This document shows positions 1 to 60,960 of a stretch of DNA of 64,000 bases, piece by piece. This DNA comes from a virus. A program made the position numbers and the translations under genes. The notes beneath the pieces were generated by a model. The model worked only from the letters and a program-made list of their open reading frames with translations. It was not told the origin of the DNA and ran no database searches. Position 1 is the stretch's first letter. Every line of letters starts with the position of its first letter. The stretch is taken from the UHGV virus genome UHGV-0310767; one strand, 5' to 3'.

Positions 1-3000
1 TAAATAGTAGTAATTTTCAGATTTTAGTTGCGGCAACATTGGATGCCGCTAATATACAAAAACAGTTAAACGCAATATCCAAAAAATATGGAACGATGAA
101 GATTAATTTAGATGTAGACAATACATCTTTAAATAATGCCACTAACTCATTAAATAATTATCAGCAAGGTTTAAAACAAACTAGTGAAGCGGCACAAAAT
201 ACATCTCAAAGCATTGGAGACATTATAGGTAAAGTAACCAAATTTGGGGGGGCTACTTTAATTATAAATAAATTTCGACAAGCAATTGTTGATGGATATG
301 GTGCAGTAAAAGAACTTGATGCTTCTGTAACAGAATATAGAAAAGTATCAGAACTTACAGATTCTCAAATGGGAGGTTTCATTGATACCGCCAGAGAATT
401 AGGTTTAACAGTGGCAAGAACAGCAGATGAAATGGTAGAAGCGGCTACAGAATTTAAAAAGATGGGTAATGATGATTCCACATCTTTACAGTTAGGTAGA
501 TTAGCTACTATGTTTCAGAATATTGCTGATGAAGCAATAAGTGCTGGTGATAGTGCTAGTTTTATTAACTCTCAGATGAAAGCATTTAATTTTACAGCTA
601 ATGAAGCTATTCATGTTTTGGATGCTGTTAATGAGGTAGCTAATAATTTTGCTGTTTCTTCTGGTGATATTTCTACAGCTTTACCCAAAGTTGCTAGTAC
701 AATGGCATTAGCTGGAAATAGTTTTGAGGAAACTATAGGATTACTTACGGCTGGTGCTGAAATAATTCCTAATCAGGCTTCCAGAATTGCTAGAGGTTTA
801 CGTTCTATCACTTTGAATCTTCAAGGTTTAAATGAGGATGGAGAGCAAGTTGCTGGAATGGCGGCTTCTATGCAGGAAGAATTTGATAAGTTAGGTATTT
901 CTTTGCTGGACAATCAGGGACAGATTAAAAGTACTTATCAGATTTTTAGCGAATTAGCAGAAATTTTCCCAAAATTAGATAAAAATACACAAACGTATTA
1001 TGCTAGTTTGATTGGCGGTAAAACTCAGGTAGACGTAGTAACAGCCATACTTAAAAACTTTGAAACTGCACTTAACGCTACAGATACAGCTATAAATTCT
1101 GTTGGTTCTGCCATGATAGAAAATGAGAAATATCTTGATTCTATTCAAGGTAAATTATCTGCTTTAAATTCTGAATTTGAGAAATTCTGGACAGAAGGAA
1201 TCAGTTCAGATATGGTAAAACAGATAGTTGAATTTGGAACAGGTGTTCTTAAATTAGTAAATGCTTTAGGTGGATTACCTACTATTCTTACAGCCGTAGT
1301 AGGAATTATAGCTACTTTAAAAGGCTATAACATAATAACTTCTTTAGGTAAAATGGGAAGTTCGTTAGCTAATGTTATAGGTTTAGTAGTTAGTTTAAGG
1401 AAAGATGGTTTTTCTTTAATTGAAATATTTACTGGCTTATCTTCTAGTGCTACATTAGCAAGTGTGGCTATTGGTGGAGTTGCGGCGGCCTTAACTATAG
1501 GTGTTGCGGCCTATTCTTATTATACTCAAGCACAAGCCAAAGCAAGAGAAGAAGCTTTAAAAGCCGCAGAAGATTTCGGCACAGAAGCCACTTCTTTAGC
1601 AGATTTACAGAAAAAGTATAATGAAATATGGACTTCTCAAGATGATGAAGAAACAAAAGCTACTAAATTAGCAGAAGTTAGAAAAACTTTAACTGACCAG
1701 TATGGGCTTGAAAAAGAACAATTGGATAAGTTAAATGAAAGTCGTGAAGCTGGAAATGCTTTATTAAACGAAGAAGCTTTTTCAAAAGCCGCAGAAGCTT
1801 ATGCAAAAAGTGTAGACGAAATACAGAAAGCACAAGAATATCTCCTTAATAATTCTATGCTTAATTATGGTGTAGATATAGGAAATAATTTAAGTGATGA
1901 AGTATTTGCTAAATTAGATAAAGCTTTTAAAGATGTATCTGAAAAAGCGCAAGGAATGATTGTAAATCTTAAAGGTACACCAGAAGAATTAGAAAAAGCT
2001 TTAGTAGAAGCTATCAATTATATGTCAGCTTTAGAGAATCCCACTCAAAATGAAATAAATTTATTAAATCGTTTTAAGAGTGATTTAAGAAGTTTATCGA
2101 AAGAAATTGATAGTTCTAATGAAGTTATAAGTAGAACACAGCAAGCTTATCTGCTTAATAACGATGCAGTTCAAACTTTCCTTAATTCCAGTTATCAAAC
2201 AAAGGAAGAAATGGAAGCGGCAAAACAAGTAGTGTTAGATAGTTTAACACCTCTTGATTCTTACCGTAAAGGTTTTGAAAATATTGTTAGTAGTGCGTTC
2301 CCAGAATGGAGCGAAAGTTCTAAAGAAAATGCAGAAGATTTAAGAGTTGAAATGAACAATGGTTCTGATGCCGCCGAGGAATATGCTAAAAAGATAAAAG
2401 AATTAGCAGGAAGTTTAAGTGAATGTCAAACTGCCTATGATACACTTACAGAGGTAGCAAAGGAATACAATGAAACTGGTAACTTAAATGTTGAAACTTT
2501 ATCGAAATTATTAAAGCTTAATCCAGAGTTTTACCAAGCTTTATCTATGCAAGAGGGAAAGCTGGTTGTCAATACTGAACTTCTTAACCAGATGGCTCAG
2601 GAGTACGCTACAAATGCGTACAGCGCAGTAACAGCGGCCCAAGGGGTTGATACCTTATCTACTTCGTTGGATGGAACTGCAACGGCAGGAATTGACGCTA
2701 CTCAGCGAATAACCGAAGCCGGGAACGCCGCTATAGAAGCAGGACAGAAAGCTTTAGAAGGTGCAAAAGGATTTAGGTCACTTATAGGAAGTATGGGGAC
2801 ATTTGTCAGTACTTTAAAAAGTGGTTTAACTGGTGATAATGGAGATGGAACAAAAGAGTATGGTCATGCTTTTGATGCTCAAGTTCAAGCTTATCAAAAG
2901 AAACAGCAAGATGATTTATTAGCCCATTTATTTGATGGGATTTCAATTGATACTAGTGGTGGAAAGAAAAAGGGTGGTGGCAAATCTGGTAAGGATAGTG

Positions 3001-4535
3001 CAGAGAAAGCCGCCAAAGAAGCCGCAAAAGCTTACAAAGAAGAATTTGAAAAACGTATCAGCGAAATTAAATTTAAGTTTGATATGGGAGATGTTACTGA
3101 ACTAGGATATTGGAAAGAAGTAGATAAAATAGTTCAGGAATTTTATGCTAATAATGAAGCTTATGCAGAAGAATATAGAGATTGGACAGCTAAGATACAA
3201 AAAGGAATGGTATCTGGAACTAAAGCAAACTTTGAATTAGAAAGGGATGCTTTAGACCATAAGTTAGCTATGGATTTGATTTCTCAAGAAACTTATTATA
3301 GAGAACTTGAGAAATTAAGACAAAAGTATTATGCACAGGATGCTATTTATGCGGCACAAAGTGAAGATATCGAAGAAGAAATATATGCTTTTAAGAAAAA
3401 GAAATTAAAAGATTTAGCAGAAGAACGTAAGAGACAGCGTAAAAAAGAATGGGATGAAGAAACAGATTGGTTAAATGAGCAGAAGTCACGTTATGAAACT
3501 GCTTTTAATTATATTGATTCTTTAGCCCAGAAAGAAATTGATGCTCTTGAAGAACAAAAGAAAGCTATTGAAGATAAATACAATGCAGAGATAGATAAAA
3601 TCAATGAAGCGCAAGATGCTTTAAATGATGAAATTGAATTGCAGGAAAAGTTAGAAGCTTTAGCCAAAGCTCAGAACACAAAGATTAGAGTTTATCGTGA
3701 AGGTGTAGGTTTTGTTTATGAAAATGACCAGTCTGCCGTAGATGAAGCCAAAGCCGCTCTTACACAGTATCAGAAAGAACAGGATACTAAGAAAGAGATT
3801 AAACGATTAGAAGATATTAGAGATGCTACAATCGAAAGTGTAGAGGAACAGATTGAGTATTGGGAAAAGTATAGGGATGAATGGAAAGACATGGTTAATT
3901 CCTATACAGAACAACAGAACAAACTTATTGCTGAACAGGTTTTAGGTATTTCACTTGAAGGTGAAAACTGGGAAAAACGTTTAGGAAATTTACAAGATTA
4001 CGTAGATAGATATAACAGCATTCTTTCTCAATTGAAACATAGAGGAAGTTATGATGATGATGATGATGATTGGGACGATGATGATTATGATTATGGTACT
4101 GGTGGAGGTGGTGGCTCTGCTGGTGGAGGTGGCACAATTGGCCCGTCTGACCATGCTGGAAGTGGTGGACATTGGGATTCCAGTGATTCATCACATGGCC
4201 CCGGTGTAGCCGCTAATGGAACAACGACAGGCCATGGTCTTACAATGGTAGGAGAAAAAGGTAGAGAATTAAGAGTTTTAGGAAACGGAGTAAACGAAGC
4301 TGACGGTATTGTTCCTAATCATTTGACTGAGAATCTTATGAAATTAGGACAATATTCACCTAGAGAATGGATTAATGCTCTTACACACAATCCTGGTAAT
4401 CAACAGTGTTCAACGCAGTATTCTTATGCGTTTGATAGTCTAGTATTACCTAATGTAACTAATGCAGATAGCTTTATTAGTGAATTAAAAAATATTAAAA
4501 ATCAGGCAATTCAGATGGGAGGAAGGAGGTTTTAA
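1..4535 (+). CDS. Tail tape measure protein, 5'-partial (the reading frame is open to the window start). Long coiled-coil alpha-helical protein with a C-terminal poly-Asp/poly-Gly low-complexity segment.
   Basis: 1498-aa ORF of TMP-like composition (A/E/K/L/Q-rich, coiled-coil heptads). Position immediately upstream of the tail/baseplate genes. No in-frame stop between nt 3 and 39, so it is probably truncated by the window edge. Confidence 0.8.
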   Translation, partial: NSSNFQILVAATLDAANIQKQLNAISKKYGTMKINLDVDNTSLNNATNSLNNYQQGLKQTSEAAQNTSQSIGDIIGKVTKFGGATLIINKFRQAIVDGYGAVKELDASVTEYRKVSELTDSQMGGFIDTARELGLTVARTADEMVEAATEFKKMGNDDSTSLQLGRLATMFQNIADEAISAGDSASFINSQMKAFNFTANEAIHVLDAVNEVANNFAVSSGDISTALPKVASTMALAGNSFEETIGLLTAGAEIIPNQASRIARGLRSITLNLQGLNEDGEQVAGMAASMQEEFDKLGISLLDNQGQIKSTYQIFSELAEIFPKLDKNTQTYYASLIGGKTQVDVVTAILKNFETALNATDTAINSVGSAMIENEKYLDSIQGKLSALNSEFEKFWTEGISSDMVKQIVEFGTGVLKLVNALGGLPTILTAVVGIIATLKGYNIITSLGKMGSSLANVIGLVVSLRKDGFSLIEIFTGLSSSATLASVAIGGVAAALTIGVAAYSYYTQAQAKAREEALKAAEDFGTEATSLADLQKKYNEIWTSQDDEETKATKLAEVRKTLTDQYGLEKEQLDKLNESREAGNALLNEEAFSKAAEAYAKSVDEIQKAQEYLLNNSMLNYGVDIGNNLSDEVFAKLDKAFKDVSEKAQGMIVNLKGTPEELEKALVEAINYMSALENPTQNEINLLNRFKSDLRSLSKEIDSSNEVISRTQQAYLLNNDAVQTFLNSSYQTKEEMEAAKQVVLDSLTPLDSYRKGFENIVSSAFPEWSESSKENAEDLRVEMNNGSDAAEEYAKKIKELAGSLSECQTAYDTLTEVAKEYNETGNLNVETLSKLLKLNPEFYQALSMQEGKLVVNTELLNQMAQEYATNAYSAVTAAQGVDTLSTSLDGTATAGIDATQRITEAGNAAIEAGQKALEGAKGFRSLIGSMGTFVSTLKSGLTGDNGDGTKEYGHAFDAQVQAYQKKQQDDLLAHLFDGISIDTSGGKKKGGGKSGKDSAEKAAKEAAKAYKEEFEKRISEIKFKFDMGDVTELGYWKEVDKIVQEFYANNEAYAEEYRDWTAKIQKGMVSGTKANFELERDALDHKLAMDLISQETYYRELEKLRQKYYAQDAIYAAQSEDIEEEIYAFKKKKLKDLAEERKRQRKKEWDEETDWLNEQKSRYETAFNYIDSLAQKEIDALEEQKKAIEDKYNAEIDKINEAQDALNDEIELQEKLEALAKAQNTKIRVYREGVGFVYENDQSAVDEAKAALTQYQKEQDTKKEIKRLEDIRDATIESVEEQIEYWEKYRDEWKDMVNSYTEQQNKLIAEQVLGISLEGENWEKRLGNLQDYVDRYNSILSQLKHRGSYDDDDDDWDDDDYDYGTGGGGGSAGGGGTIGPSDHAGSGGHWDSSDSSHGPGVAANGTTTGHGLTMVGEKGRELRVLGNGVNEADGIVPNHLTENLMKLGQYSPREWINALTHNPGNQQCSTQYSYAFDSLVLPNVTNADSFISELKNIKNQAIQMGGRRF

Positions 4536-4570: not shown

Positions 4571-4843
4571 ATGACAGGAAATTTTGATATAAATAAAGAA
4601 TTATTGGATGTAATGAGAATTATCGCAAGACAAGAAATAGAAAAATGTAATAGAGATATTACAAAAACTGCTAGAGTAATAGCGGTAAATACTGATAAAA
4701 CAGTTAAAATAGAAATGGATGGAAAACAATATGATAATATTCCTAATTATAATGGGACTACTTTAACAACTAATGATATTGTAAAAGTAACTTATCCTCA
4801 AGGACAGACAAGTAATATGTATATATCTGGGGGGGGCGTTTAA
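4571..4843 (+). CDS. Small tail-module protein (90 aa). Ends in GGGV, encoded by a G8 tract, and is possibly the N-terminal half of a protein fused with the next ORF.
   Basis: Good RBS (aaaggagtgagatatt ATG). ORF ends at the G8 tract 4829-4836. Confidence 0.5.
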   Translation: MTGNFDINKELLDVMRIIARQEIEKCNRDITKTARVIAVNTDKTVKIEMDGKQYDNIPNYNGTTLTTNDIVKVTYPQGQTSNMYISGGGV

Positions 4844-4848
4844 TAATA

Positions 4849-5097
4849 TTGGGTATAACTGATTATGGAATTTTGCAATTAAAATCAGAAAATTCAAATC
4901 CTAGTAGTCCAGAAGGTTCGCAAATTTCATTTCATGGAATGGGTGGAGATACAGGAAAAGGTCAAGATTATTTGTGTTTAGATGCTAATAATGGAGATAT
5001 AAGAATATTTGGTAATTTTGGAGGGGGAGATATTGTAAAAGTGTATGCTTTTACAAATGATGGGTTATATTTTGATGGCAAGAAAATAGGGCCTTAA
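4849..5097 (+). CDS. Small tail-module protein (82 aa) with no RBS of its own. Probably the continuation of 4571..4843 after a +1/-2 slip in the G8 tract.
   Basis: TTG start without an RBS. In frame with the upstream ORF if the G tract is 9 (or 6) long. Confidence 0.4.
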   Translation: MGITDYGILQLKSENSNPSSPEGSQISFHGMGGDTGKGQDYLCLDANNGDIRIFGNFGGGDIVKVYAFTNDGLYFDGKKIGP

Positions 5098-9815: not shown

Positions 9816-10562
9816 ATGAGTGTATTATATCCATCACTTTCTAATACAACGTTTCCAAATACTATTCAAAGTTTTGTAACTTTCTTGAATATTACTCCTA
9901 CTGATGCTTCACTGATTCAAAAATATCAGCTTGCGGTACAGTCAGGAAATATGGAAGAAGCAGAAAATATATTTGGACAAATACAGAATGGTAATCAGAA
10001 AATTATTGATGCTACTAAATTAAATACTTTGGTAGACACTACAGTTGCATTGGAAAACTTTTTTAAAACAGATGTATTTCCTTACATTGATGTTAAGCAG
10101 AATGAATGGCAGAATATTATCAATCTGTTTAATTATAAAGGAGTTTACAGCCCTGTTACTACCTATGTTAAAAATAATTTTGTAACTTTTACTTATAATG
10201 GTGTAGAATATGTATATATTGCTACTGCAAATCCACCTGTAGGAGCAGACCCTACTAATGCCGCTTATTGGAGAAATCTTTCTATTCGTGGTGAAAAGGG
10301 AGACCCAGGAGTAGGAATGTCATTCCTTTATGCATGGGATTCTACGGTTCATTATTCTGTACAAAATGTAGTAACTTATGGTAACTATGTATGGGGTGCG
10401 ACCAAAGAGAATCAGAATCAGGCCCCTTTTGAGGATTCAGAGTATTGGTCTAACATAGGTACGATTAGACCCCGTGTAATCCCTATTACGAGTTCTTACC
10501 CGGCTTTACAGGAGACAGGAGACTTATGGTTCCGCATTTTGACTGATGGGGGGGGTATATAA
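9816..10562 (+). CDS. Tail structural protein (248 aa). The C-terminal GGG is encoded by an in-frame G8 tract.
   Basis: RBS aaggaggtaagaa ATG. G8 at 10548-10555, just before the stop. Confidence 0.45.
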   Translation: MSVLYPSLSNTTFPNTIQSFVTFLNITPTDASLIQKYQLAVQSGNMEEAENIFGQIQNGNQKIIDATKLNTLVDTTVALENFFKTDVFPYIDVKQNEWQNIINLFNYKGVYSPVTTYVKNNFVTFTYNGVEYVYIATANPPVGADPTNAAYWRNLSIRGEKGDPGVGMSFLYAWDSTVHYSVQNVVTYGNYVWGATKENQNQAPFEDSEYWSNIGTIRPRVIPITSSYPALQETGDLWFRILTDGGGI

Positions 10563-10565: not shown

Positions 10566-13500
10566 ATGGAGAATCTTTTTAATTATAAATGGTACGATGG
10601 ATTTACTTCTGCTACTAGAAATGGTATTACTTTTACCAATAATAATGACGGAAGTTTTACTTTATCTGGTACAGAAACATCAGGTATTACAGCCAATTAT
10701 ACCATACAGAACTTAAAATTAACTCATGCACAAAGTCTTGATTTTTTTAAGAATGGGGCAGGAGTTTATACTTTTTCTACTTTTGATAAAAATTCTATGG
10801 TAAATAGTACTCCTAATATGAGAGTTTGGTATTATAAAGATACTTCATCTACTTTTCAAGAACTTTTTAATCCAGCTTTTAATAAAGAAACTTTTAATGT
10901 TACAAGTGATATGCTAAATAGTACATTTTATTTAGAGGTAGGAATTTATAGAAGTATATCTATAAAAGAAACAAACTTTAACAAAACTTTAATACCCTAT
11001 CTTTATTTTGGAGAAGGTACAGGTTTTGACCTTATTAAATGGCAGGATTTAGCCTTAAAGAACGAAAGCTTAAGACAGCAGTTTATGCAGTATTTTAGAG
11101 AAGGATATTATTCTCAGGCATTGGCTCTTATTACAGATAATGCTGATATTGATTCAGAAACAGTAAGACCAGAAGTGTTTAATATGATAAATACTTCTTT
11201 AACTTATTTACAGAATCTTTATTATAATTCTGTAGAGGTTGTATTATCAGAAGATGAACAGCAGTTTCAGCTTATGATAAATAATTTTATTAACAAAAAG
11301 GAATTTAGTGCAACAGCCACATATGTTCCTTATAACTTTGTAGTATATAATCAAGAAATATACATGTGTTTAAAGGCAACTACGGCAGGTATTCTTCCTA
11401 CTAATACAGATTATTGGCTTCTGATTGGATTAAAGGGAGAAATAGGGGCTACAGCTATTGATACCACATTAAAATATAAATGGAATTACAAAATTACTTA
11501 TTCTGTAAAAGATGTAGTCACTTATGATAATATTTTATATGTAGCTAAGACAAGAAATAATAATTCCCAACCTGACACTAATCCAGAAGATTGGGAAATA
11601 TTTATGAAGATTCCTAGAGCGAAAATTATTGTATCTGCTATAGAACCTAATCCAGATGCTTTAGTAGTAGGTGGTCAATGGTGGCAAGTAAATAAAGTAT
11701 ATCCAAATAAAACAGTTACAGTATCAGATGTAAATAATATTTCATTAACAGTAAATGATAGTGAAACAGCACCTATAGAATCAGTAGAAGCTTATGGTAA
11801 TATAGAGCAGTTTTCCACGACCGGGGCACAGATGCTGGATATACCATCATTGTCGGCCCGTACCTCCAATGGAGTAACGTTCACCCCAAATCCAGATGGC
11901 GCCATACTTGCTACCGGAACTGCTACAGGTGGTAATGCCACTTTCTATCTTAGCGATAGACTTTCCGTCCCATCCGGGGATTATTATATTTCAGGCTGTC
12001 CAGACGGTGGCGATAAATCGACCTACGTAATCAAGGGGTATATAAATACGTCCGATGGTACCAGTTATGCATATGCATATGATATCGGTGACGGTGACAC
12101 GTTGACAGTTAAGGACGGACAGACCCTTTCCCTTGCCATAACCATAGGCAACAATGCATCCGGTCCCCTGGTCTTCAGGCCCATGCTCCATGCAGGTTCC
12201 ACGCCCAAGCCCTGGGAACCCTACACTGGCGGCAAACCTTCTCCTAATCCAGAATTTCCACAGGATATTAAAGGAGTAGGTTGGACACCTAATTTATTGA
12301 GTTTTAAAGAGTGGCATGATATTATTGTTTTAAATAGTTCTAAAGGAGTAACAAGAGGAACAGCAATATGGGATTTTTCTCTTAGATATATAACTTTAAC
12401 AGCTACAGAAGAGGATTGTTATACTACTTTTGATGCAAATGATAAAGTTTATAAAATTCCTGTAAAGCCTAATAAGGGATATATTCTTACGTGGGATGCT
12501 ATAGGAGATATAGGAAAAGTATATATATTTCGTAACGGCCTTAGTGCTTCTTCAGTTTCTATAGATAATACTATAGGGGTATTAAGAATGACTACTAATG
12601 CAGATACAGAGTTTATTACGTTTAGATTGGGAGTAACTAATGCAGGAGAATCCTGTACTTATACTAATTTGATGTTTATGGAAGATAATAATTTTATTAC
12701 AGAATATGTAGATTATGCAGAAAAAGGAAAAGGTGTAATGGAAGTAACTACATCTGGATTAAATTTGTTTGATGCTAGTAAGATTCCTACTAAAAGTGAA
12801 AGTGGAGTAACAGTAACCAATAATGGGGATGGTAGTTTTACTATAACAGGAAGTGGTACAGTTACAGCAAGTTTTGGTGGATATTATGTATACAGTAGAA
12901 AAAATGCGATAAAATTTATTGAATATATCGAAAAAAATTTAGGGACTTATTCAATGACCAATGGAGATGTTTTTCCATATTTTTACTGGAAAATTGGTTA
13001 TAGTACTACAAGTGTTTTTGAAATTAATACAAATACTAATTACACAAGAAAAATTTCAAAAGAAATAATAAATACTTTTAAATCAAATGAAAATTTAAAA
13101 ATAATAATTGGTTATCATTTAAGTAATGGGGCTACTATTGTGCCAGGAACAATAAAACCTATGCTTTGGAAAAATGATACTCCACCAACAGTTAATGATT
13201 GGGTTCAATTTTCTGGCATTCCCACTTGTGCAAAAGCTATGTTATCATCTCAACTTTATAAGATAGATAACTATGCACAAGATTATTTTCATTATGGTGA
13301 TGGACAATGGGAAGTAATTCACAAAATAAAGAAAGTTGTGTTAGATGGAACGATTGATTATGACACATATAATATAATGACAAATTCTAAAGAAATAAGA
13401 CCTCTTGGAAGTGCTTATTATAGTATGGTGATTCCTGCAAAAATACAAGGTGCTTATAGCGATAAATTTAGATGGGTTGAAAGTACGTGGAAAAAAGATG

Positions 13501-13829
13501 AAGTAGGAATTTTTTCTAATTTTGCAGGAAATGAAACAAATTACAAATATTTAAGTTTTAGGATTCCTGCTGATGCTGACCCAAATGAGTATATGGATGC
13601 ACACCCTACTACAGTATTATTTATTCCATATAACAATGGAAATGATTATTCTGTAAGTGAAACCATAGAAGATTTTAATGAAGGAAATGAATCTGCTATT
13701 GAATTATCTCAATTGAATAGCTTTTTACCCTCCACACAAATGAGTGTTTCTTCTTATATTGCGCCTACACAAATAGGCTTGACATATTCTGCTGATGTAG
13801 ACACGTATATGAAGAATAATTATACGTGA
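10566..13829 (+). CDS. Large modular tail-fibre / receptor-binding protein (1087 aa) with three copies of a 'G(I/V)TFT(N/P)N(N/P)DGSF(T/I)L(S/T)GT' module and a KPWEPYTGGKPSP linker module also present in the 21488..23038 protein.
   Basis: Internal repeats at aa ~20, ~440 and ~750. Module shared with ORF 21488..23038. Contains a GC-rich patch at 11815-12245. Confidence 0.6.
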   Translation: MENLFNYKWYDGFTSATRNGITFTNNNDGSFTLSGTETSGITANYTIQNLKLTHAQSLDFFKNGAGVYTFSTFDKNSMVNSTPNMRVWYYKDTSSTFQELFNPAFNKETFNVTSDMLNSTFYLEVGIYRSISIKETNFNKTLIPYLYFGEGTGFDLIKWQDLALKNESLRQQFMQYFREGYYSQALALITDNADIDSETVRPEVFNMINTSLTYLQNLYYNSVEVVLSEDEQQFQLMINNFINKKEFSATATYVPYNFVVYNQEIYMCLKATTAGILPTNTDYWLLIGLKGEIGATAIDTTLKYKWNYKITYSVKDVVTYDNILYVAKTRNNNSQPDTNPEDWEIFMKIPRAKIIVSAIEPNPDALVVGGQWWQVNKVYPNKTVTVSDVNNISLTVNDSETAPIESVEAYGNIEQFSTTGAQMLDIPSLSARTSNGVTFTPNPDGAILATGTATGGNATFYLSDRLSVPSGDYYISGCPDGGDKSTYVIKGYINTSDGTSYAYAYDIGDGDTLTVKDGQTLSLAITIGNNASGPLVFRPMLHAGSTPKPWEPYTGGKPSPNPEFPQDIKGVGWTPNLLSFKEWHDIIVLNSSKGVTRGTAIWDFSLRYITLTATEEDCYTTFDANDKVYKIPVKPNKGYILTWDAIGDIGKVYIFRNGLSASSVSIDNTIGVLRMTTNADTEFITFRLGVTNAGESCTYTNLMFMEDNNFITEYVDYAEKGKGVMEVTTSGLNLFDASKIPTKSESGVTVTNNGDGSFTITGSGTVTASFGGYYVYSRKNAIKFIEYIEKNLGTYSMTNGDVFPYFYWKIGYSTTSVFEINTNTNYTRKISKEIINTFKSNENLKIIIGYHLSNGATIVPGTIKPMLWKNDTPPTVNDWVQFSGIPTCAKAMLSSQLYKIDNYAQDYFHYGDGQWEVIHKIKKVVLDGTIDYDTYNIMTNSKEIRPLGSAYYSMVIPAKIQGAYSDKFRWVESTWKKDEVGIFSNFAGNETNYKYLSFRIPADADPNEYMDAHPTTVLFIPYNNGNDYSVSETIEDFNEGNESAIELSQLNSFLPSTQMSVSSYIAPTQIGLTYSADVDTYMKNNYT

Positions 13830-14264: not shown

Positions 14265-15133
14265 ATGAGTGTGTTAAACAGATTCCCAACTGGGGGGGCA
14301 GTAATGATGGTTTGACAGCCACCCCAGGAGAAGTTTTAAGTGGTTACAAATTCGTAGGGGCCAGTACAGACGATGTTCAAGTGGGTACTTTACAACTTAC
14401 TGGTAATGCCGCAACGAACCATGTACTTAGTGGTACTACGTTTTATACAAACAACCCCAAGAATAAGCTTACTGGTTATATGGCAATCAATAACATCAGA
14501 GGATTTTCTGTAAGTCTTATAAGTGGCAGAAATGTAACGGTTCAATGGACTAATCCTGTACAAACTGCTGGATATCCTTACAGTGGGGTATATGTAAAAT
14601 ACCAAACAGGTTCCTATCCCACTCCTTCCACTGGTACACAGGCGTACAAGGGAGTAGGAAGCAGTGGGGCAAGTGGGGCCGCTTCTACTGTTTTCAGAAA
14701 TGGTGTAGTTTTATGTAGTGCAGATGGTGGTAAATCCAATACCAGTAAAACTTATGATGGTGGCTCTGGCGGCTCTGGTGGCGGCGGTGGTGGTCAGAGA
14801 GATGGTAATATTCCTGGACAATGGGGTGGTTCTAATGGTGCTGGTGGAGGTAGTGTAGCGGCTAGTGGTAGTGGCGGTAGAGGTCAAGGATTTACTACTA
14901 CTGCTTTTAGAGAAAACTGGGGAACTGTTTACTCAGGTGGTGGCGGCGGTGCTGGTGCTAATACTGGCTCTGGTGGCGGTGGAAACGCTGGCGGTGGAGG
15001 TGGTGGAGGCGCTTATGGTGGTGGCGGCTGGGGTTCAGCTAATACAGGTGGTGGGGGAGGTGGTCAATACTGGCCCAACGGAACCAACGGTGGAAATGGA
15101 GGTTCTGGTGTAATATTGATAAGAATAAAATAA
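14265..15133 (+). CDS. Glycine-rich tail-fibre paralog 1. The conserved N-terminus MSVLNRFPTGG is followed by a G7 tract (14292-14298) that puts the body (tracked as ORF 14312..15133) out of frame; G8 would restore it.
   Basis: ATG at 14265 with RBS aaaggaaaatagtttt. The N-terminal peptide matches the paralogs at 17631 and 48467. The body is homologous to 15174, 17631 and 47324 and ends in the family C-terminus GSGVILIRIK. Confidence 0.65.
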
Positions 15134-15173
15134 TTTAACGGTATGAAAATTTAAAGAAAGGAAATAATTAAGT

Positions 15174-16526
15174 ATGGCTATAATGAATAACTTTGCTTCT
15201 GGTGGTGCGCCTACAGATGAATTGACGGCAACCCCGGCAGAAGTAATGAAAGGTTATAAATTTCTAGGTGCTGGTTCTGATGAAGAACAAACTGGTACAT
15301 TGGAATTAACTGGAAATGCGGCTGTTAATCATGTTTTACAAGGTGAAACATTTTATAATACAAATCCTAAGAACAAACTTACAGGTACTATGACTGTAAA
15401 TAGTATATTTTCTTTTAAGGCGCAAGTAGTCAGTGGGCGGCAGATTTTGTTTACATGGCAAAATCCGACTACTGCGACAGGAAAGCCGTTCAGCGGAGTA
15501 TGTATAAATTATTCTACTTCTGGATATCCTGGTACGGGAGGTACACGATTATATACAGGAGTAGGAAGCAATAGTGCTTCTGGTGGTACATCTCAAGCTT
15601 ATTTAAATTTACCTAATCTTAATACAGCTTATTATTTTAGTTGTTATTCTTTTGTGAATATTAATAATAATGCAGATAATAAGTATGGTACAGTATTCAA
15701 TGCTAGTGCAACTACAGGAAGAAACATAAGTTTAACTTTTACTCAAAGTCAAGACTATACAATTCCAGGAGGATTTACATTGTTAGATGTATTCCTTGTA
15801 GGAGGTGGAAATAGTGGTATAAGAGGTAACGGAAGAGCTAATAATTGGAAATATGCAGGAGATGGAGGTGGCGGTGGTTATACCAAAACGCAAAGAAATA
15901 TTGGTATAGCTGGCGGTCAAGTTTTAAGATTTAATGTAGGTGGTGGTGGTGGATTTGTTGCAGGTTTAGCATACAATCAATCTGGACAAAGAACTTTTAA
16001 TGTAGGAGGGGTTTCAAGTGTAGTAAGAAGTGGAAGTGTTTTAGCTACTGTTAATGGAGGAAATGATTTTAATGGTGGCTCTGGTGGCGGCGCATATGGT
16101 GAACAAGTATATTTTGGAGAGAATGATTTTAAACACTATGTAGGAAATGGAGGTTCTAATGGTGGAAATGGTGGTTCTACTTTAATAAATAGAAATGGAA
16201 CTACAAGACCAGGAGGTGCAGGACAGAGATTTAGTACAAGAGCCTGGGATGGAACAGGTGCACAATACTCTGCTGGTGGCGGTGGTGGTGCACAACCAGG
16301 AGCAAGATTAGCTGGTTCTGGCGGCTCTGGTGGTAGCCCAGGTGGAGGTAAAGGTGGTAATGCTTGGGCTGGTGGAACAAATGGAGAAAATGGACAAAAC
16401 GGTTCTGCAAATACTGGCTCTGGCGGCGGTGGTGGCGGCGGTTGTGCCTATTATCAAGGTCGTTCTGGTGGTAGTGGTGGAGGCGGTGCTGGTGGTTCTG
16501 GTATCATTTTAGCCATTCTTCATTAA
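15174..16526 (+). CDS. Glycine-rich tail-fibre paralog 2. Intact, with no homopolymer at the N-terminus (MAIMNNFASGGAP).
   Basis: 450 aa. Conserved N-terminal domain (LTATPxEVxxGYKFxG ... TGNAxxNHV ... NPK ... SGR ... PYSGV). Long Gly-rich C-terminal part ending in GSGIILAILH. Confidence 0.7.
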   Translation: MAIMNNFASGGAPTDELTATPAEVMKGYKFLGAGSDEEQTGTLELTGNAAVNHVLQGETFYNTNPKNKLTGTMTVNSIFSFKAQVVSGRQILFTWQNPTTATGKPFSGVCINYSTSGYPGTGGTRLYTGVGSNSASGGTSQAYLNLPNLNTAYYFSCYSFVNINNNADNKYGTVFNASATTGRNISLTFTQSQDYTIPGGFTLLDVFLVGGGNSGIRGNGRANNWKYAGDGGGGGYTKTQRNIGIAGGQVLRFNVGGGGGFVAGLAYNQSGQRTFNVGGVSSVVRSGSVLATVNGGNDFNGGSGGGAYGEQVYFGENDFKHYVGNGGSNGGNGGSTLINRNGTTRPGGAGQRFSTRAWDGTGAQYSAGGGGGAQPGARLAGSGGSGGSPGGGKGGNAWAGGTNGENGQNGSANTGSGGGGGGGCAYYQGRSGGSGGGGAGGSGIILAILH

Positions 16527-16564
16527 TTTTAAAAATAAATTTTAAGAATGAAAGGAAAAGAAAA

Positions 16565-17284
16565 ATGATTGTACATCAGGTTTATGCGTATATTTGGAAT
16601 GAAACTGTACAGAATGTTGTAGTATGTGATAATTACCAGTTAGCGAATGATATCGCCAAAGGTTGTTATGGTAATGATGCTTTTGCTGTAGATTGCTTAC
16701 AATATCCTTGTCAAATTGGAGATAAATATGTAGATGGGAGATTCTATAGAGTTCCAGACGCTACTGAAAATGGAGTGTTGATAGCAAAACCTATGGATAC
16801 TACACCTGTTGATGTTAGTAAATTAGTGGAAATTGAATATGTTTCAACACAGGAACAGGAAGTTGCTACTTTAAAAGCACAGAATGCTATATTAGCTACT
16901 GCTACTTCGTTTATGATTAACACCTTTACAGATGAACAAGCTATTATGGTAGCTGACCTTTATCCTTTATGGTCTGGTGAAAGTGTAAAATATGAAGTTG
17001 GAGAAAGAATAAAGGATGAAAATTATATCCTTTATAAAGTAATTACTGCTCATACGTCACAGCCAGATTGGAAACCTTCTGTATCTCCTTCATTATTTGC
17101 AAAAGTATTAGTGGAAAATCCTAATGAAGTTACTGAGTGGAAACAGCCTGATAGCACTAATGGTTATGATAAAGACATAGTAGTACTTCATAATGGAAAG
17201 GAGTGGAAGTCCCTTGTAAACGGTAATATATGGGAACCAGGAGTTGTAGGAACAGAAACTTTATGGGAAGAAGTAATAAAATAG
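16565..17284 (+). CDS. Hypothetical protein within the tail-fibre cluster (239 aa). Possibly a fibre assembly or accessory protein.
   Basis: RBS gaaaggaaaagaaaa ATG. Located between fibre paralogs 2 and 3. Confidence 0.4.
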   Translation: MIVHQVYAYIWNETVQNVVVCDNYQLANDIAKGCYGNDAFAVDCLQYPCQIGDKYVDGRFYRVPDATENGVLIAKPMDTTPVDVSKLVEIEYVSTQEQEVATLKAQNAILATATSFMINTFTDEQAIMVADLYPLWSGESVKYEVGERIKDENYILYKVITAHTSQPDWKPSVSPSLFAKVLVENPNEVTEWKQPDSTNGYDKDIVVLHNGKEWKSLVNGNIWEPGVVGTETLWEEVIK

Positions 17285-17389
17285 ACATTAAACTACAAAT
17301 TCTACAAAGTAAATGTATATTATACCCTAAAAAGGGTATAATATAAATGTAACCATAAAAAATGATTTCAAGAAAGAGAGGAATTTATA

Positions 17390-17553
17390 ATGGCAGTTTT
17401 AAAAGGTCACAGTGACAAGAGGACACCGGAACAGAGACATGATGATGCAATTAATATGCGTGAGGATGTAAAGCCCACTGCTCTTAACACAGAAAAGAAT
17501 TACGTGACTACTGGCCCAGGTACAGGCAAGGAAGATGAACGTAACGATTGATA
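17390..17553 (+). CDS. Small hypothetical protein (54 aa). Not in the ORF track.
   Basis: ATG preceded by agagaggaatttataATG. Followed by a hairpin terminator at 17561-17590. Confidence 0.3.
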
Positions 17554-17630
17554 ATTGAAAAAGGGAAGGGTAAAACCTTCCCTTTTTACATATTTTTTAA
17601 TATGAATAAAAGGAAAAGAGGGAAATAAAA

Positions 17631-18866
17631 ATGAGTATATTAAACCACTTCCCTACTGGGGGGGGCATAAGTGATACACTAACGGCTACGCCAGAGGATG
17701 TAATGAAAGGGTTTAAATTTGTAGGTTTGCTTCAAGATGATGTGGAAATTGGCACTTTAGAACTTACAGGAAACGCTTTAATTAATCACGTTACAAAAGA
17801 CAAGACATTTTATACTACTAATCCCAAACAAATAATGACAGGAATTATGGAAGTTAATAATGCTAGTAATCTTGTGCTAAGTTTGGCTAGTGGACGTAAC
17901 GTAATAATAAAATGGACTAATCCCAAAGTGACTACAGGCAGACCTTATAGTGGCGTTTATGTTCGTTATCAGACAGGAAGTTATCCAACGCCAACTACAG
18001 GTACACAAGGGTACAAAGGGGTAGGGAGTACTTCTTCGGCTGGTAGCGTATCTCAGGTCACTTTGGCTTTACCTAACCTTAATACCACTTATTACTTCAT
18101 TGTTTACTCTTATTGCACTACCAGTAATGGAGAATTAATTGGCTCTCAATTAAAAGGTACTATAAAAACAGGAAATACTCAAACAATTACCATAAAAAGT
18201 AATCAAAATTACACTGTGCCAGCAGGATATAAAACAGCAGACATATTTTGTGTTGGTGGTGGTGGAGGTAATTATTCCAGTTCTAAATATTATAGTGGAG
18301 GTGGTGCTGGGGGAGGATATACTAAAACTGTTAGCAATATAGGCATTTCTTCTGGTCAAGTACTAAGTTGTACAATAGGAGGAAGTGGTGGGGCAACTTC
18401 GGTTTCTCGTAGTGGAACAGTACTTTGTATTGCTAATGGAGGGAAACAAAGTTCTGCTGGTACTGCTAGTGTAGGTGGTTCTGGTGGTGGCGGTTATACA
18501 GATAATTCAAGATACAATGGAGGAAATGGTGGTAGTAATGGAGGTGGTGGTTCAAGTTCTGGTGCTGGTGCTGGTGCTTTAGGACAGGGAACAACCACAA
18601 GAGCATTTGGTGAAAGTTCTGGTGCTTTATACTCAGGAGGGGGTGGCGGCGGTGCCTACTACTCTAGTTCATCTTCTGGTGGTGCAGGAGGTGCAGGAGG
18701 CGGTGGTGCTGGTGGAAGAAGAAGTAGCCGTCCAGGACAAAATGGGGCCGCTAACACAGGTGGGGGTGCAGGAGGTGGATTTCAAAGTAATACTTCTAAT
18801 CCTTCTGAAAATCCTGATAACAGTAGCCAAGGAGGAAGCGGTATTATTTTAATTAGATTAAAGTAA
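17631..18866 (+). CDS. Glycine-rich tail-fibre paralog 3. In frame, with a G8 tract (17658-17665) encoding the conserved FPTGGG.
   Basis: 411 aa. N-terminus MSILNHFPTGGGISDTLTATPEDVMKGFKF. Ends in GSGIILIRLK. Closest to the minus-strand copy at 47324..48467. Confidence 0.7.
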   Translation: MSILNHFPTGGGISDTLTATPEDVMKGFKFVGLLQDDVEIGTLELTGNALINHVTKDKTFYTTNPKQIMTGIMEVNNASNLVLSLASGRNVIIKWTNPKVTTGRPYSGVYVRYQTGSYPTPTTGTQGYKGVGSTSSAGSVSQVTLALPNLNTTYYFIVYSYCTTSNGELIGSQLKGTIKTGNTQTITIKSNQNYTVPAGYKTADIFCVGGGGGNYSSSKYYSGGGAGGGYTKTVSNIGISSGQVLSCTIGGSGGATSVSRSGTVLCIANGGKQSSAGTASVGGSGGGGYTDNSRYNGGNGGSNGGGGSSSGAGAGALGQGTTTRAFGESSGALYSGGGGGGAYYSSSSSGGAGGAGGGGAGGRRSSRPGQNGAANTGGGAGGGFQSNTSNPSENPDNSSQGGSGIILIRLK

Positions 18867-18905
18867 CAAATAGTGTAAAAAATAAATGAAAGAAAGGGAA
18901 TAATT

Positions 18906-19763
18906 ATGGCAATACTTAATCGTTTTCCTACTGGGGGGAGGCTTATCTTCTGAGGTCACAGCAACTAACAATCAGCTTTTAACAGGGTATACAGCTATAA
19001 CGGCTAACTCTGATGATGAACCAATTGAAGGAACTATGCCTAATTGTGGTACACAGAATTATAGTTTACCTATAAATGGAAGTTATACTATCCCAGAAGG
19101 TTATCATTCTGGCGAAGGTAAGGTAACTCAATCTGTTACTACTATGAAGAGTTCTAATATAACACCTAATACATCTGTAGTAACAATTCCCACCAATCAG
19201 AAATATATTGATGGGAATTTTACTATTCCTGCATTTGCTTTACCATCTGCTTCTATTTTGAAAAAAAAGGAGCAACATATACTTTATATGGAAAAAAGGT
19301 TACAGGAGAATTTGAGGGCTTCGTTCCTAGTGTTACAGATTTATATTACAAAGGAAATAATATAGCTAATTTCAGTTTTAAGGTGGCATATGGATATTCT
19401 GTACTAGGCTCTGTTAAATTTGAAACTGCTCAAATGATAACTACATCAGATAGAAATGGAACTGCTGGCCCTTTATGTAGTGGAAGAAGTTATAATTTAA
19501 CTCCTTATAATTCAATTAATATTGAAGTAAATCCTCCAACTCCATCTATTTCTTTATCTACAGTTTATAGGGGTGTAGTATTTCATTATGGGAGTGATTT
19601 AAATACAAGAGATGCATTTATAAATTCAACAAAACCATCAACTTATGTATTTAGTTTTGATATATCAGGAATAAATGCAACTAAATGGTTTGCGTTTATG
19701 TTTTTTTATAAAGAAAATACTAGTGCCTATAAAGGAATTATAAATCGTATTTGGTTCAGTTAA
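18906..19763 (+). CDS. Tail-fibre-like protein 4. It has the same FPTGG N-terminal leader and a different, non-Gly-rich body. It is currently broken into three ORFs by a G6 tract (18933-18938) and an A8 tract (19261-19268).
   Basis: ATG 18906 with RBS gaaagggaataatt. The frame reconnects to ORF 19036..19365 with G5 or G8. ORF 19036..19365 reconnects to 19383..19763 with A9, giving a plausible continuous sequence ...ILKKKGATYTLYGKKVTGEFEGF... Confidence 0.5.
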
Positions 19764-20716: not shown

Positions 20717-20903
20717 ATGGTAACTATGAATAAGTGGGGGGGCAAATGGTACTGCCGAAGCAGAATTTTGCGGTTTAAGTACTGACAATAAACCCGTAGA
20801 CGAAGGAATTCCTAATGGTTCATCATTTTTTGAGATGGATACATTTAAGGTATATTTCTTTAATAAAATGACAAAAACATGGATAACTGAGGGAGGTGTT
20901 TAA
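20717..20903 (+). CDS. Small protein downstream of the lysin. A G7 tract at 20736-20742 gives a 22-aa truncation; G6 (or G9) would give a 62-aa protein (..ANGTAEAEFCGLSTDNKPVDEGIPNGSSFFEMDTFKVYFFNKMTKTWITEGGV).
   Basis: Strong RBS ggaggtaaaaaat ATG. The alternative frame is open to 20903 and abuts the next gene. Confidence 0.35.
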
Positions 20904-33303: not shown

Positions 33304-34797
33304 TTATTCTTCCTCTCTATCTGCCCTTTCAAATTGTAATGATAAACTTAAATCAGGATTTACATTACGAATTTTTATTACACTATGCGTAAAGACAGAA
33401 TTTTTATATTTCTTTGCTATAAATTCTTCTTCATCATCTTCACTTTTACGATATCCTGATATCATAAGTAGTGTACCTTTTTTAAACCAATTAGTATCTT
33501 CGTCAAATTCTTCTGTTTCACTAATACTTTTTTTATAGTAAGCATACTGTCCTTCATTAAATTTAACCATAACTACATCATTATCTGGTGTAAGAAGATT
33601 AATAAAATGTTTACTGTCGTTACGACTTAATACCACACCACATATTCTTGAAAGGTCGTATTGTCTCCATTTTCTTTTCCCATTCTTACTACTTTTTTCT
33701 ACAAAAATAGGAGATGTGGGTAAATCTTGATAATGACTAATATTATATTCTTCAAAATCAATACCTGTAAGTTCGTGCTTATCTGGATAAAAAGAAATGG
33801 TTTCCATACTCCATTTAGGAATATTTTCATACTTTACCAGATTCATATATTCTTGTTGCCAATATTTCTTATTGTATTCTTCTACTAAAGATGGATTATT
33901 AATATAGCTTATTAATTCATCTAATTCTGGTTTTAGAACTTTATCCAAAGATTTATCAATAACAATAAGCATATCATTCTCGTAATAAAAATCTTTTCCT
34001 TCTGTAAGGTCATTAATATAATGTTCCTCAAAGAATGGTCTAGCAAATTTATCCTCAAGTATATAATCTTTTTTAGTCTTAAATTTCTCATTCTTACGAT
34101 AAAAGAAATTAGGACTTTCTACATATTTTCTAAAGTTATATACTTTAACAAGGTGTTTAGGAAGCGTACAACCCAATTCTAAGCATTTAGAAAGATTAGC
34201 CATAGTAAGAGTTGTCTTAGCTGGATTCTCCCAGCATATAAGCCATTTAAGCATTAATATCTTATCATCACATAATGAATCGAAACAACCAGCTTTAATT
34301 AAAGTGGCAAATATACTTTTTGTAACTAAACTTTTTCTATAAATCATATTTCCTTTTTCGTCCAATTCTCCCGTGGGAACTAATAAATTCTTCTGATAAT
34401 CATAAAATTCTTTGAACGAATTATAAGGTCTGCCGCTCATAATATCTTTGGCAACATCCCTATTCATTTTAGTAATTCCACCTAATCCAAAAAGAATTAA
34501 ACTTTCGTCTACTAAAGGAGTAAAGGATAAGTCTGATTTATTTATATCTGGCGGCAATGTATTTATACGATAATCTTTCATACGATAAATAGCTTTTGCC
34601 ATTTTTTCATAATTAGTTCCAGTATTCTTTTTCTTTCTTTCTAAATCTTCATATTCATCTTCATTTTCTTCTGTTGATGAAGATTCTACAGTTAAACAGG
34701 CACAAGCCCAAAATACAGGAGGAAAGAAGTAATTTACATTGAGTTCTTGTAAACCAATTACTGAGTAAGCGTACGAATGTAATTGGGAAAAGGAATT
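33304..34797 (-). CDS. dnaE: DNA polymerase III alpha subunit (DnaE-type) exon 3 (C-terminal part: HhH and OB region). The 5' boundary is approximate.
   Basis: The frame is open from 34797. Encodes ...HSYAYSVIGLQ...FWACACLTVESSS...TLPPDINKSDLSFTPLVDESLILFGLGGI, matching the DnaE FNKSHSAAYALVSYQ ... ILPPDIN ... FGLGAIKGVG region. Confidence 0.7.
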   Translation of the reverse strand, partial: NSFSQLHSYAYSVIGLQELNVNYFFPPVFWACACLTVESSSTEENEDEYEDLERKKKNTGTNYEKMAKAIYRMKDYRINTLPPDINKSDLSFTPLVDESLILFGLGGITKMNRDVAKDIMSGRPYNSFKEFYDYQKNLLVPTGELDEKGNMIYRKSLVTKSIFATLIKAGCFDSLCDDKILMLKWLICWENPAKTTLTMANLSKCLELGCTLPKHLVKVYNFRKYVESPNFFYRKNEKFKTKKDYILEDKFARPFFEEHYINDLTEGKDFYYENDMLIVIDKSLDKVLKPELDELISYINNPSLVEEYNKKYWQQEYMNLVKYENIPKWSMETISFYPDKHELTGIDFEEYNISHYQDLPTSPIFVEKSSKNGKRKWRQYDLSRICGVVLSRNDSKHFINLLTPDNDVVMVKFNEGQYAYYKKSISETEEFDEDTNWFKKGTLLMISGYRKSEDDEEEFIAKKYKNSVFTHSVIKIRNVNPDLSLSLQFERADREEE

Positions 34798-36188: not shown

Positions 36189-37313
36189 ATAGCCAAAACT
36201 CATACCAAATAATTCATACCATATATAATTGGCAAATAATTCTCTACACCCTTGTTTAATACAATGCTCAAAGAACATGATTCTTGTGGCTTCTAACACT
36301 TCATCGTCTTTTTTTGCTATAGCTTTTCTTAATTTATTGGCCTGTTTAAGACTAAATCCTGCAACTCTTTTATCCATGGAAATAAGCATAACTTTTTCCT
36401 GGGATTCTGGAAGCATACGAGAATCAGAACAATATTGTCTTATAACGTCCATTTCATCTTCTGTTAATCCATATTCATGACAATCTTTTTCCCATTCTTT
36501 TACATCGGCATATCTAGCATATCTCTGTAATGGAGTCTCAGTAGTTTCACCACTACCCATCAATCGTAATATGGAATTAGTTGCAGATAACTCCATTAAA
36601 TTTTTGGGCTGTACTACATTAATAGCATTTACTGACACAGGAGTATCGAACTGAAATAAAGAATAAATATCTTTAATGATTCCCCACATAGAAGGATTGT
36701 CATAATTTATAACATCTGGATGTAAGTACTTATCATATGTTGCTTTTAAATTACCTTGCCATTCTAAATATTTATGCTCAACCAATAAATCCATAGTAGT
36801 TCTTAATTTATCGCTGGCTTTTACTGTAAGCATATCTACTTTAACAATACCGCAATCTTCACAATCCTGCAAATCATAACAAGTACATAAATCTCCATTA
36901 GGGGCTTTCATACAAGAAATATAGTTAGTATAAGGCTCATTTGAGATAATTAATCCTGCGGCATGAAGTCCTCTACCAACGACAATTCCTTCTAAAGCTA
37001 ATGCACACTCTTTAAGATTAGGATACTTGTTAATTTCCTTTATAAATTCTTTTGCTGGTTTTCTATTTTTTTTAGTATTTCCTTCTAAACAATCCTTAAG
37101 ACTCCAAATCATTCCTCTTTCTACTGGAATTAAAGATTTAAGATATCCTGCGGCATCATCAGAAATTCCTAAACCTTTACAGGATTTTTCTATAGCTGTT
37201 TTGGAAGTCATTTCAGAAAATGTAGCCACTTTTAAAACCTTATCAAATCCCCAGAATTTTGCAATGTTGTGTGCAATAATTTGCTTTTTTGTATTCTGTG
37301 AATCTAAATCAAT
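36189..37313 (-). CDS. dnaE: DNA polymerase III alpha exon 2 (polymerase core middle part). Boundaries are approximate.
   Basis: Begins IDLDSQNTKKQIIAHNIAKFWGFDKVLKVATF (DnaE PD|IDIDF...VAQIATFG) and contains GRGLHAAGLIIS (DnaE GRHAAGVVI). Confidence 0.7.
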
Positions 37314-60676: not shown

Positions 60677-60960
60677 TTATATATCAACAATTATTTTAAA
60701 ACCTATTATGCCATTCTCTACATAATAAGGAATAATAGAATTATACTCTGTGGTACATATTACCCTTAACATACATTCGGCATAATCTTTACCTGTCATA
60801 TCACAAATTCTTCCTTTGTATAAAGTTTCACCCCCCCACATACATTAAGATGAAGCCCTCTTGTGTCTAAATTAGATGAATAACTTTTGTTCTTGTGAAT
60901 AAAGACATAAGTATTACTATCTAATTTATTTAATATATCCACTAAAAATATACTTTCCAT
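60677..60960 (-). CDS. Small protein gene containing a G7 tract (+ strand C7 at 60831-60837). The current frame stops after 57 aa; G8 gives a 94-aa protein (...HLNVCGGGETLYKGRICDMTGKDYAECMLRVICTTEY...).
   Basis: ATG at 60960 with RBS aaagaaaggaaaattt ATG. The alternative frame is open to 60677. Confidence 0.4.

Follow-up and report, generated by a model that had tools for sequence, protein, structure and literature searches.

Poly-G tracts as probable phase-variation switches in tail-appendage, DNA methyltransferase, and small genes of a virulent Enterocloster siphophage

In Campylobacter, Neisseria, Haemophilus, and Helicobacter, polyG and polyC contingency loci occur in surface and restriction-modification (R-M) genes. 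Among phages, hypermutable polyG tracts in the receptor-binding protein genes of Fletchervirus were reportedly described by Sorensen et al. in 2021 (Cell Rep 35:109214). These Campylobacter phages have tracts of about 7-11 G in the receptor-binding protein genes (PMC12633550, PMC11959909, PMC12823448), and a poly-G tract is also known from the methylase of BPP-1 (PMC12633550) and from a baseplate gene of PB1-like phages (PMC12633550; PMC11959909). Contingency loci have also been proposed for T2/T4 and other coliphages (Gomez, Barrick and Waters, bioRxiv 2025; PMC12633550), and a 2025 review terms the Fletchervirus case 'exceptional' (PMC11959909). Here, we describe a 64,000-nucleotide (nt) stretch of the virus genome UHGV-0310767 (one strand; hereafter the window, to whose positions all coordinates refer), in which G runs lie in genes for putative tail appendages, a DNA methyltransferase, and other proteins. 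As in Fletchervirus, in which changes in tract length shift the frame and create subpopulations, there are several G tracts per genome in host-recognition genes. Comparison with related phages leads us to conclude that these homopolymers are probably hypermutable and serve as contingency (phase-variation) switches in this phage, a virulent siphophage of Enterocloster that belongs to the PMBT24 group.

The window shares mosaic blocks of 97-99.5% identity with Enterocloster phage PMBT24 and is ~90% identical to the Enterocloster phages CB457P1/P2 and CB473P1/P2/P3; these are ~100-kb siphoviruses, virulent and isolated from sewage. It contains 10 G/C runs of at least 6, every one of them a G run on the sense strand of an open reading frame (ORF), and 7 of the 10 put the gene out of frame or truncate its product. 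Below, a tract length that keeps the gene open is called ON and any other OFF. The putatively switchable genes, together with the paralogs to which several of them belong, are as follows.

4571..5097, plus strand: gene following the tape measure gene (post-tape-measure gene); G8 at 4829-4836 gives a 90-amino-acid (aa) N-terminal domain and an immediate stop; G9 would give 175 aa with a C-terminal domain.
14265..15133, plus strand: P1, glycine-rich putative tail-appendage paralog; G7 at 14292-14298, OFF; G8 would give 289 aa.
15174..16526, plus strand: P2, glycine-rich paralog lacking a tract (GGT GGT GCG); always in frame, 450 aa.
17631..18866, plus strand: P3, glycine-rich paralog; G8 at 17658-17665, ON, 411 aa; N-terminal motif, FN3, and Gly_rich_2.
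18906..19763, plus strand: P4, sharing the N-terminal motif only (MAILNRFPTGGG); G6 at 18933-18938 (needs G8); doubly OFF.
20717..20903, plus strand: 62-aa gene after the lysin; G7 at 20736-20742, OFF; needs G9 or G6.
47324..48467, minus strand: P5, fifth FPTGGG glycine-rich paralog, in the replication module; C6 at 48435-48440 (sense-strand G6), OFF; G8 would give 381 aa.
52142..53499, minus strand: C5 cytosine DNA methyltransferase, split by C7 at 52780-52786 (sense-strand G7); G8 would give an intact enzyme of ~452 aa from the ATG at 53499.
53585-53605 (first 7 codons) and ~51740-51945 (3' end), minus strand: remnants of P6, the sixth paralog, the remainder being replaced by the methyltransferase cassette.
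60677..60960, minus strand: 93-aa gene upstream of a sigma-factor-like ORF; C7 at 60831-60837 (sense-strand G7), OFF; needs G8 or G5.

Tract alleles were compared across the isolate genomes (PMBT24, CB457P1/P2, and CB473P1/P2/P3) and metagenome contigs (L-numbers). At six loci, both ON and OFF lengths were found with identical flanks and only the tract length differing, which is the polymorphism that marks a contingency locus. The alleles at the individual loci are listed here.

P6-type paralog: ON as G8 in L141 and L142 (11 contigs, 445 aa); OFF as G9 in PMBT24, L010, and L012.
Tail-module copy: ON as G8 in L155; OFF as G9 in L154.
P5-type paralog: no ON allele seen; OFF as G6 in the window, PMBT24 (stub), L139, and L156, and as G7 in CB457P1 (stub).
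Methyltransferase: ON as G8 in L144 (identical flanks, open frame); OFF as G7 in the window.
Post-tape-measure gene: ON as G9 in CB457P2, CB457P1, L149, and L150; OFF as G8 in the window.
62-aa gene: ON as G9 in L152 and as GGGGAGGGG in CB457P1; OFF as G7 in the window, PMBT24, and L151, and as G8 in CB457P2 and CB473P3.
93-aa gene: ON as G5 in PMBT24 (within the annotated coding sequence 86481..86762); OFF as G7 in the window.

For the P6-type paralog, CB457P2 is also OFF with G9, and its allele recurs as a G7, again OFF, in L009. For the post-tape-measure gene, CB457P2 and L150 have flanks identical to those of the window and a 175-aa ORF, CB457P1 and L149 carry a different C-terminus, and PMBT24 reads GGGGGAGG. 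P4 is OFF as G6 in the window, G10 in PMBT24, and G9 in L014, and is ON in L096, where the G6 is followed by TTA. Some relatives carry interrupted, 'locked' versions at tract sites: PMBT24 has GGTGGTGCG at P1, with no tract and in frame, CB473P1 has GGGGGAGGT at P6, where its close relative CB473P3 has a pure G9, and the GGGGAGGGG of CB457P1 locks the 62-aa gene ON, annotated as 62 aa.

One further allele differs ahead of the run. In L157 (~275-312), the codon before the tract is AGT rather than ACT, and in this G9 (OFF) allele, the GTG of A-GTG-GGG is in frame with the body and is used as a start by the gene caller (MGGGINE...). This GTG is a possible alternative start, or possibly an annotation artefact.

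It seems to us extremely unlikely that the OFF states reflect a sequencing or assembly artefact, with the true length in frame (G8 or G9) everywhere and the shorter runs of the window being undercalls. Such an origin would be consistent with the fact that all 7 OFF tracts of the window fall short of the next ON length up and that the run at 4829 is G8 in the window and G9 in all four relatives that retain a pure tract. However, the PMBT24 genome was sequenced by Illumina MiSeq (its paper makes no mention of homopolymers or frameshifts), and it shares the G6 at P5 and the G7 at both 20736 and 246, and it also carries the OFF lengths G10, G9, and G6, of which G9 and G10 are longer than ON. The same OFF lengths also recur in independent contigs (G7 at P1 in L140, G6 at P5 in L139, and G7 at 20736 in L151). 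In blocks of at least 90% identity, there are only seven clean homopolymer length differences between the window and PMBT24, namely the C7 versus C5 at 60831 and six indels in A/T runs that lie mainly outside ORFs, and long ORFs are mostly contiguous. Two-base differences (G6/G8, A8/A6, and C7/C5) are, moreover, atypical of miscalls. A per-run tally of indels against PMBT24 shows that A/T indel frequency rises with run length, with too few clean-flanked G/C tracts to inform. An earlier reading of the window made from the sequence alone (the sequence-only reading) had named a fixed G8 throughout, undercalled by the platform, as the finding that would overturn it, and had suggested comparing independent isolates; that comparison instead yields the frame-changing alleles at six loci described above.

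The tracts are also far more frequent than composition and codon usage predict. Homopolymers long enough to slip (at least 7) within reading frames or promoters are typical of contingency loci, and the window holds sense-strand G runs of 6-8 in its ORFs. At a GC content of 32%, there are 8 G/C runs of at least 7 against 1.36 expected from dinucleotide-preserving shuffles, an approximately sixfold enrichment that none of 300 shuffles reached, and 3 runs of at least 8 against 0.24 expected. A/T runs behave in the opposite manner, with 3 of at least 8 against 25 expected and none of at least 9 against 9.4 expected. This depletion of A/T runs beside an excess of G runs implies that the genome generally purges slippery runs and retains long G runs at particular sites. 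Codon usage points in the same direction: only 26 of the 368 glycine codons in four of the paralogs are GGG (7%), the longest G run in the paralog bodies is 5, and shuffling of synonymous glycine codons placed a run of at least G7 inside the first 15 codons in 0.7% of gene-shuffles.

These results bear on most of what the sequence-only reading had claimed. Its three tract positions and frames (G7 at 14292-14298 out of frame, G8 at 17658-17665 in frame, and G6 at 18933-18938 out of frame) are as described, its tract-free and in-frame second paralog is present, and both the specific retention of GGG at the 5' end and the excess of G runs over chance hold up. It had overlooked seven further tracts (246, 4829, 10548, 20736, 48435, 52780, and 60831), several of which lie in genes other than fibre genes; the out-of-frame or truncated set includes the fifth FPTGGG paralog, the C5 methyltransferase, the post-tape-measure tail gene, and the two small genes. 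The contingency-locus architecture that it proposed is partly supported, by the length alleles, by the intact gene bodies and low dN/dS of OFF copies, and by the predicted fold, and has to be widened for the non-fibre genes and qualified by the decay seen alongside. Its picture of four tandem FPTGGG fibre genes does not survive, as a CBM5/12 gene (16565..17284) and a small ORF (17390..17551) lie between P2 and P3, P2, which has the codons TCT GGT GGT GCG, begins MAIMNNFASGGA rather than with FPTGGG, and the body of P4 is unrelated.

The shared N-terminal motif reads M-x-(I/V)-L-N-(R/H)-F-P-T-G-G-G, and the G run encodes the three glycines at codons 10-12. P1 starts at the ATG at 14265 with MSVLNRFPT and, with its G7, stops after 16 codons; the body ORF, 14312..15133, requires G8. 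P5 begins MPILNRFPTGG. In P4, the G6 is followed by AGG and a stop after 15 codons; ~25 N-terminal residues are common to the family, and the body is unrelated and not glycine-rich. A second frameshift in P4 lies at an A8 (19261-19268, the only A8 in the window), which is A6 in PMBT24. In P4, the G tract shifts the frame by -2 and the A tract by +2, so that the 3' third (19383..19763) returns to the frame of the ATG. Mutual compensation by these two shifts was considered and rejected, as the stop at codon 16 precedes the recovery of the frame and the protein is not rescued. P3 probably has its own promoter, since it is separated from the small ORF 17390..17551 by a strong terminator-like hairpin (17558-17587) with 12 pairs and a T run behind them.

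Residues 190-410 of P3 match Pfam PF21722 (Gly_rich_2) with a score of 47.7 bits (cut-off 24.3). Among public proteins, more than 1,200 homologues were found, nearly all of them unnamed proteins from gut metagenomes, and PF21722 is present in nearly all of the 120 homologues listed; close homologues keep M-x-x-L-N-R-F-P-T-G-G-G, and in distant ones, a short stretch of glycines occupies that position. P3 has no NCBIfam match and no sequence match to any chain in the PDB, and a tblastn search of 50,697 cultured-phage records found homologues only in the six Enterocloster phages. The AlphaFold model of P3 (mean predicted confidence, pLDDT, 89.6) has an N-terminal peptide that is disordered, followed by an FN3 domain and then a glycine-rich one, and the fold so predicted matches the tail-tip brush and fibre proteins of phages. 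The paralog genes lie in the tail module, near the ORFs at 9816 and 10566 with tail-fibre PHROG matches. Because of this predicted structure and gene context, it is reasonable to regard the paralogs as tail-tip appendages, which would place their tracts in virion host-recognition proteins.

With its tract set to G8, the methyltransferase matches PF00145 (E 1.1e-56, profile positions 2-322 of 324) and holds the catalytic motifs FAGVGS, PCQ, ENV, QSRNR, and GNS. The gene sits on a cassette of 1.6 kb (51946-53584), which has taken the place of the 5' two-thirds of the sixth paralog; in PMBT24, that paralog is intact. The ribosome-binding site and first seven codons of that paralog (53585-53605) are kept, followed by a GC-rich hairpin, CACACCCCTTTATGGGGTGTG, and then by the methylase gene. 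PMBT24 has a gene annotated 'methyltransferase Dmt' that holds a G7 at 84374-84380 (34374-34380 of L004), which makes it the second poly-G-bearing methylase of the group.

The OFF copies could instead be redundant paralogs undergoing plain pseudogene decay, with the homopolymer being the likeliest site of an inactivating indel and no adaptive, reversible switch involved. Signs of decay are evident: two frameshifts break P4, P1 has lost 372 nt, P5 is reduced to stubs in PMBT24 and CB457P1, and P6 has been overwritten by the cassette. In a sample not selected by frame, 6 of 19 FPT tracts are ON, close to the one third expected under free drift in length, and this gives no sign of selection for the ON state. 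CB457P2 and CB473P2, from different E. bolteae host strains, differ by 2 single-nucleotide polymorphisms (SNPs), with no indels and no tract differences, which indicates that majority states do not flip within a few passages. The tracts at 246, at 10548, and at 29354 of PMBT24 are in frame and of equal length in all relatives. The case for switching also rests on a comparison of consensus sequences between relatives, and single calls in the window, such as the G8 at 4829, could be in error. All of these points weigh against the switching interpretation.

Despite this, we consider decay unlikely to be the whole explanation. Repair of the tract in the OFF copies yields full-length proteins of 260-446 aa with a conserved C-terminus (GGSG-V-V-L-I-R-L-K), that is, 260-446 codons free of stops in a 32% GC genome. 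Over codons 14-190, the ratio of nonsynonymous to synonymous substitution (dN/dS) among the glycine-rich paralogs is 0.15-0.29, and pairs in which both members are OFF give 0.16 (P6 of PMBT24 versus P6 of CB457P2, at a synonymous divergence, dS, of 0.67) and 0.05 (the G9 of CB457P2 versus the G7 of L009). Purifying selection between two OFF copies is hard to square with dead genes and fits genes that are used intermittently. A dN/dS of 0.97 for P1 of the window against L140 was discarded as an alignment artefact arising from internal deletions. Furthermore, pure tracts are kept despite strong codon bias and genome-wide purging of homopolymers, ON and OFF alleles that share their flanks occur side by side in nature at six loci, and the same design recurs in unrelated genes.

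Purifying selection on bodies that are out of frame in most consensus states, together with a tract that is always on the sense strand, would also be consistent with recoding at the level of the RNA or the ribosome, in which polymerase stutter or a ribosomal frameshift yields some full-length protein and 'OFF' means low expression. We regard this as highly improbable, as neither a stimulatory structure nor a canonical slippery heptamer can be seen and the required shift varies by allele (+1, -1, or +2), so that no single signal explains it. Bacterial transcriptional slippage, moreover, is documented for long A/T runs rather than for G runs.

Homology between relatives repeatedly breaks at the tracts. 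In PMBT24, the 5' end of a P3-type gene is joined exactly at the tract to the P4 body, equivalent to a tract-to-tract deletion of window positions 17666-18938. In the post-tape-measure gene, homology ends at the tract, with differing C-terminal domains beyond, and at the P1 tract, a 12-nt patch differs inside a block that is otherwise 99.5% identical. The methylase cassette joins after codon 7 of the sixth paralog. From these junctions, the shared 5' motif probably also mediates cassette exchange. That the motif and G run serve mainly as a recombination junction for swapping appendage cassettes, with frame changes as a by-product, is compatible with phase variation and is favoured by these joins; as the principal explanation, though, it strikes us as very unlikely. 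A repeat of 30-40 nt would promote swaps whether or not it held a pure G run. The tracts of the methyltransferase, 62-aa, and 93-aa genes are left unexplained, and so is the one- or two-base polymorphism between identical alleles.

The paralog bodies also vary away from the tracts. P1 lacks 372 nt (124 codons, in frame) that PMBT24 has between two copies of a 16-nt repeat (window 14666-14681; PMBT24 45698-46085), and PMBT24 lacks ~1 kb of P2. On these sequences, the glycine-rich bodies evidently undergo repeat-mediated deletions.

Taking the G runs as phase-variation switches, we envisage that slipped-strand mispairing during replication would add or remove one G per event, probably through the phage's own replisome, as the phage encodes a DnaE-like polymerase. 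In the paralogs, a G8 (or G5 or G11) would permit readthrough into the FN3 and glycine-rich tail-tip 'brush' protein, and other lengths would lead to a stop after 13-25 codons. Each genome has one always-on, tract-free copy in the tail module besides several copies that would be switchable, so that a lysate would be a mixture of virions with different appendage sets. In the post-tape-measure gene, the switch would select between an N-domain-only and a two-domain form. The methyltransferase tract would decide C5 methylation of progeny DNA, a hedge between classical R-M and methylation-dependent restriction, and the same device would toggle the two small genes. The slippage mechanism, reversibility in the population, competition for one docking site, and a benefit in host range or anti-restriction are what we infer from the comparison.

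A more ambitious scheme unites these elements, and taken as a whole, it is offered tentatively, as less likely than not. In this scheme, which combines a combinatorial 'appendage-choice' with a phage 'phasevarion', the paralogs would share one N-terminal docking peptide whose three glycines are deliberately written as a G homopolymer, and each replication burst would give virions with varied mixes of tail-tip brush on the same baseplate site. The motif and tract would also be the crossover point for importing new cassettes, while the poly-G-switched C5 methyltransferase would set the epigenetic state of progeny DNA in parallel.

The two remaining tracts of the window are in frame.

246..252, plus strand: G7 in the tape measure gene (39..4535), the same G7 being present in PMBT24.
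10548..10555, plus strand: G8, 3 codons before the stop of a tail-fibre gene (9816..10562).

At the latter site, G8 is also found in PMBT24, CB457P2, and CB473P3, and CB457P1 reads GGGGAGGG. The ORFs 9816..10562 and 10566..13829, which both match the tail-fibre family phrog_26419, are in the same frame and separated by one TAA located 3 codons past the G8; neither G7 nor G9 would fuse them, and readthrough of the stop codon would.

Several other observations concern the relatives and the rest of the window. One of the 2 SNPs between CB457P2 (position 39010; L133) and CB473P2 is a Tyr/Asp change in a tract-free, always-on, glycine-rich tail gene and is a candidate host-range mutation. An 8-bp difference in length between the same two genomes was considered as a tract change and rejected, since it sits at the record ends. 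In the minus-strand gene for the DnaE-like polymerase (33304..39585), there are insertions at 34792-36188 and 37305-38164 that carry ORFs 34938..35837 and 37456..37830. The PMBT24 gene for DNA polymerase III alpha is a single, uninterrupted coding sequence of 4,038 nt, and the annotation of CB457P2 at the equivalent sites gives I-HmuI-like endonucleases. The two insertions are probably introns or inteins with homing endonucleases, and Rfam at its gathering score found no group I intron. Rfam and tRNA scans of the window were empty. A scan of metagenome contigs with a pattern permitting G5 returned mostly unrelated environmental matches, with L076, L096, and L126 relevant among the matches listed; a scan of GTDB representative genomes for an FPT+G6 start gave no relevant matches and no prophage copies, and a viral-contig scan for the sequence context of the 60831 tract gave no matches.

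If the switching interpretation is correct, it has implications beyond this phage. Phage-encoded phase variation has been shown experimentally for essentially one group, and the window phage, which is virulent and infects a Bacillota species of the human gut, would represent a second lineage, unrelated to the first. In it, the same design extends on a larger scale to five or six appendage paralogs as well as to a tail-tip domain, a DNA methyltransferase, and small genes. Poly-G bet-hedging would then be a convergent and general phage strategy. Current annotation misses the tract genes or calls them 'hypothetical' with false starts, and host-range prediction from consensus genomes would be affected, as would the design of phage therapy, because lysates would be phenotypically mixed. 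As the isolates PMBT24 and CB457/CB473 exist, the idea is directly testable. In agreement with the sequence-only reading, which saw no precedent in a Firmicutes-type phage with this multi-paralog layout, we found no description of such tracts in Enterocloster or any Bacillota phage in the searchable literature.

Compared with Fletchervirus, the window phage has a Bacillota gut anaerobe as its host and a ~100-kb siphovirus virion, its tract lies on an N-terminal motif common to a family of paralogs and recurs in a C5 methyltransferase, and the P3 tblastn search, which matched only Enterocloster phages, gave no homology to Fletchervirus receptor-binding proteins or genomes. Switching has been shown by experiment in Fletchervirus, whereas here, it is deduced from comparison. 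The resemblance to the T2/T4 coliphage loci lies in short homopolymers, reversible frameshifting by polymerase slippage, and proposed bet-hedging (PMC12633550); in coliphages, however, repeats of at least 6 bp are under-represented in tail fibre genes (PMC12633550), whereas in the window, long G runs are concentrated in the tail appendage genes. Structural matches of the predicted appendage include the Bxb1 tail wing brush gp33 and tail spike gp29 and the tail fibre of cyanophage Pam3 (PDB 9d93, 7ypx), and the descriptions of these matches, as distinct from their DNA, do not mention a polyG switch. As in bacterial contingency loci and phasevarions, the homopolymer lies in the first codons or mid-gene, slipped-strand mispairing would turn the gene ON or OFF, and the targets are surface structures and DNA methyltransferases. 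Unlike bacterial phasevarions, the tracts are in a virulent phage and would be copied by a phage replisome, and the enzyme is an orphan C5 methyltransferase on a small cassette rather than a Type I/III mod gene. The kind of switch is already known; what is unusual here is that the tract is placed on a shared docking motif, coincides with a recombination junction, and extends to a C5 methyltransferase.

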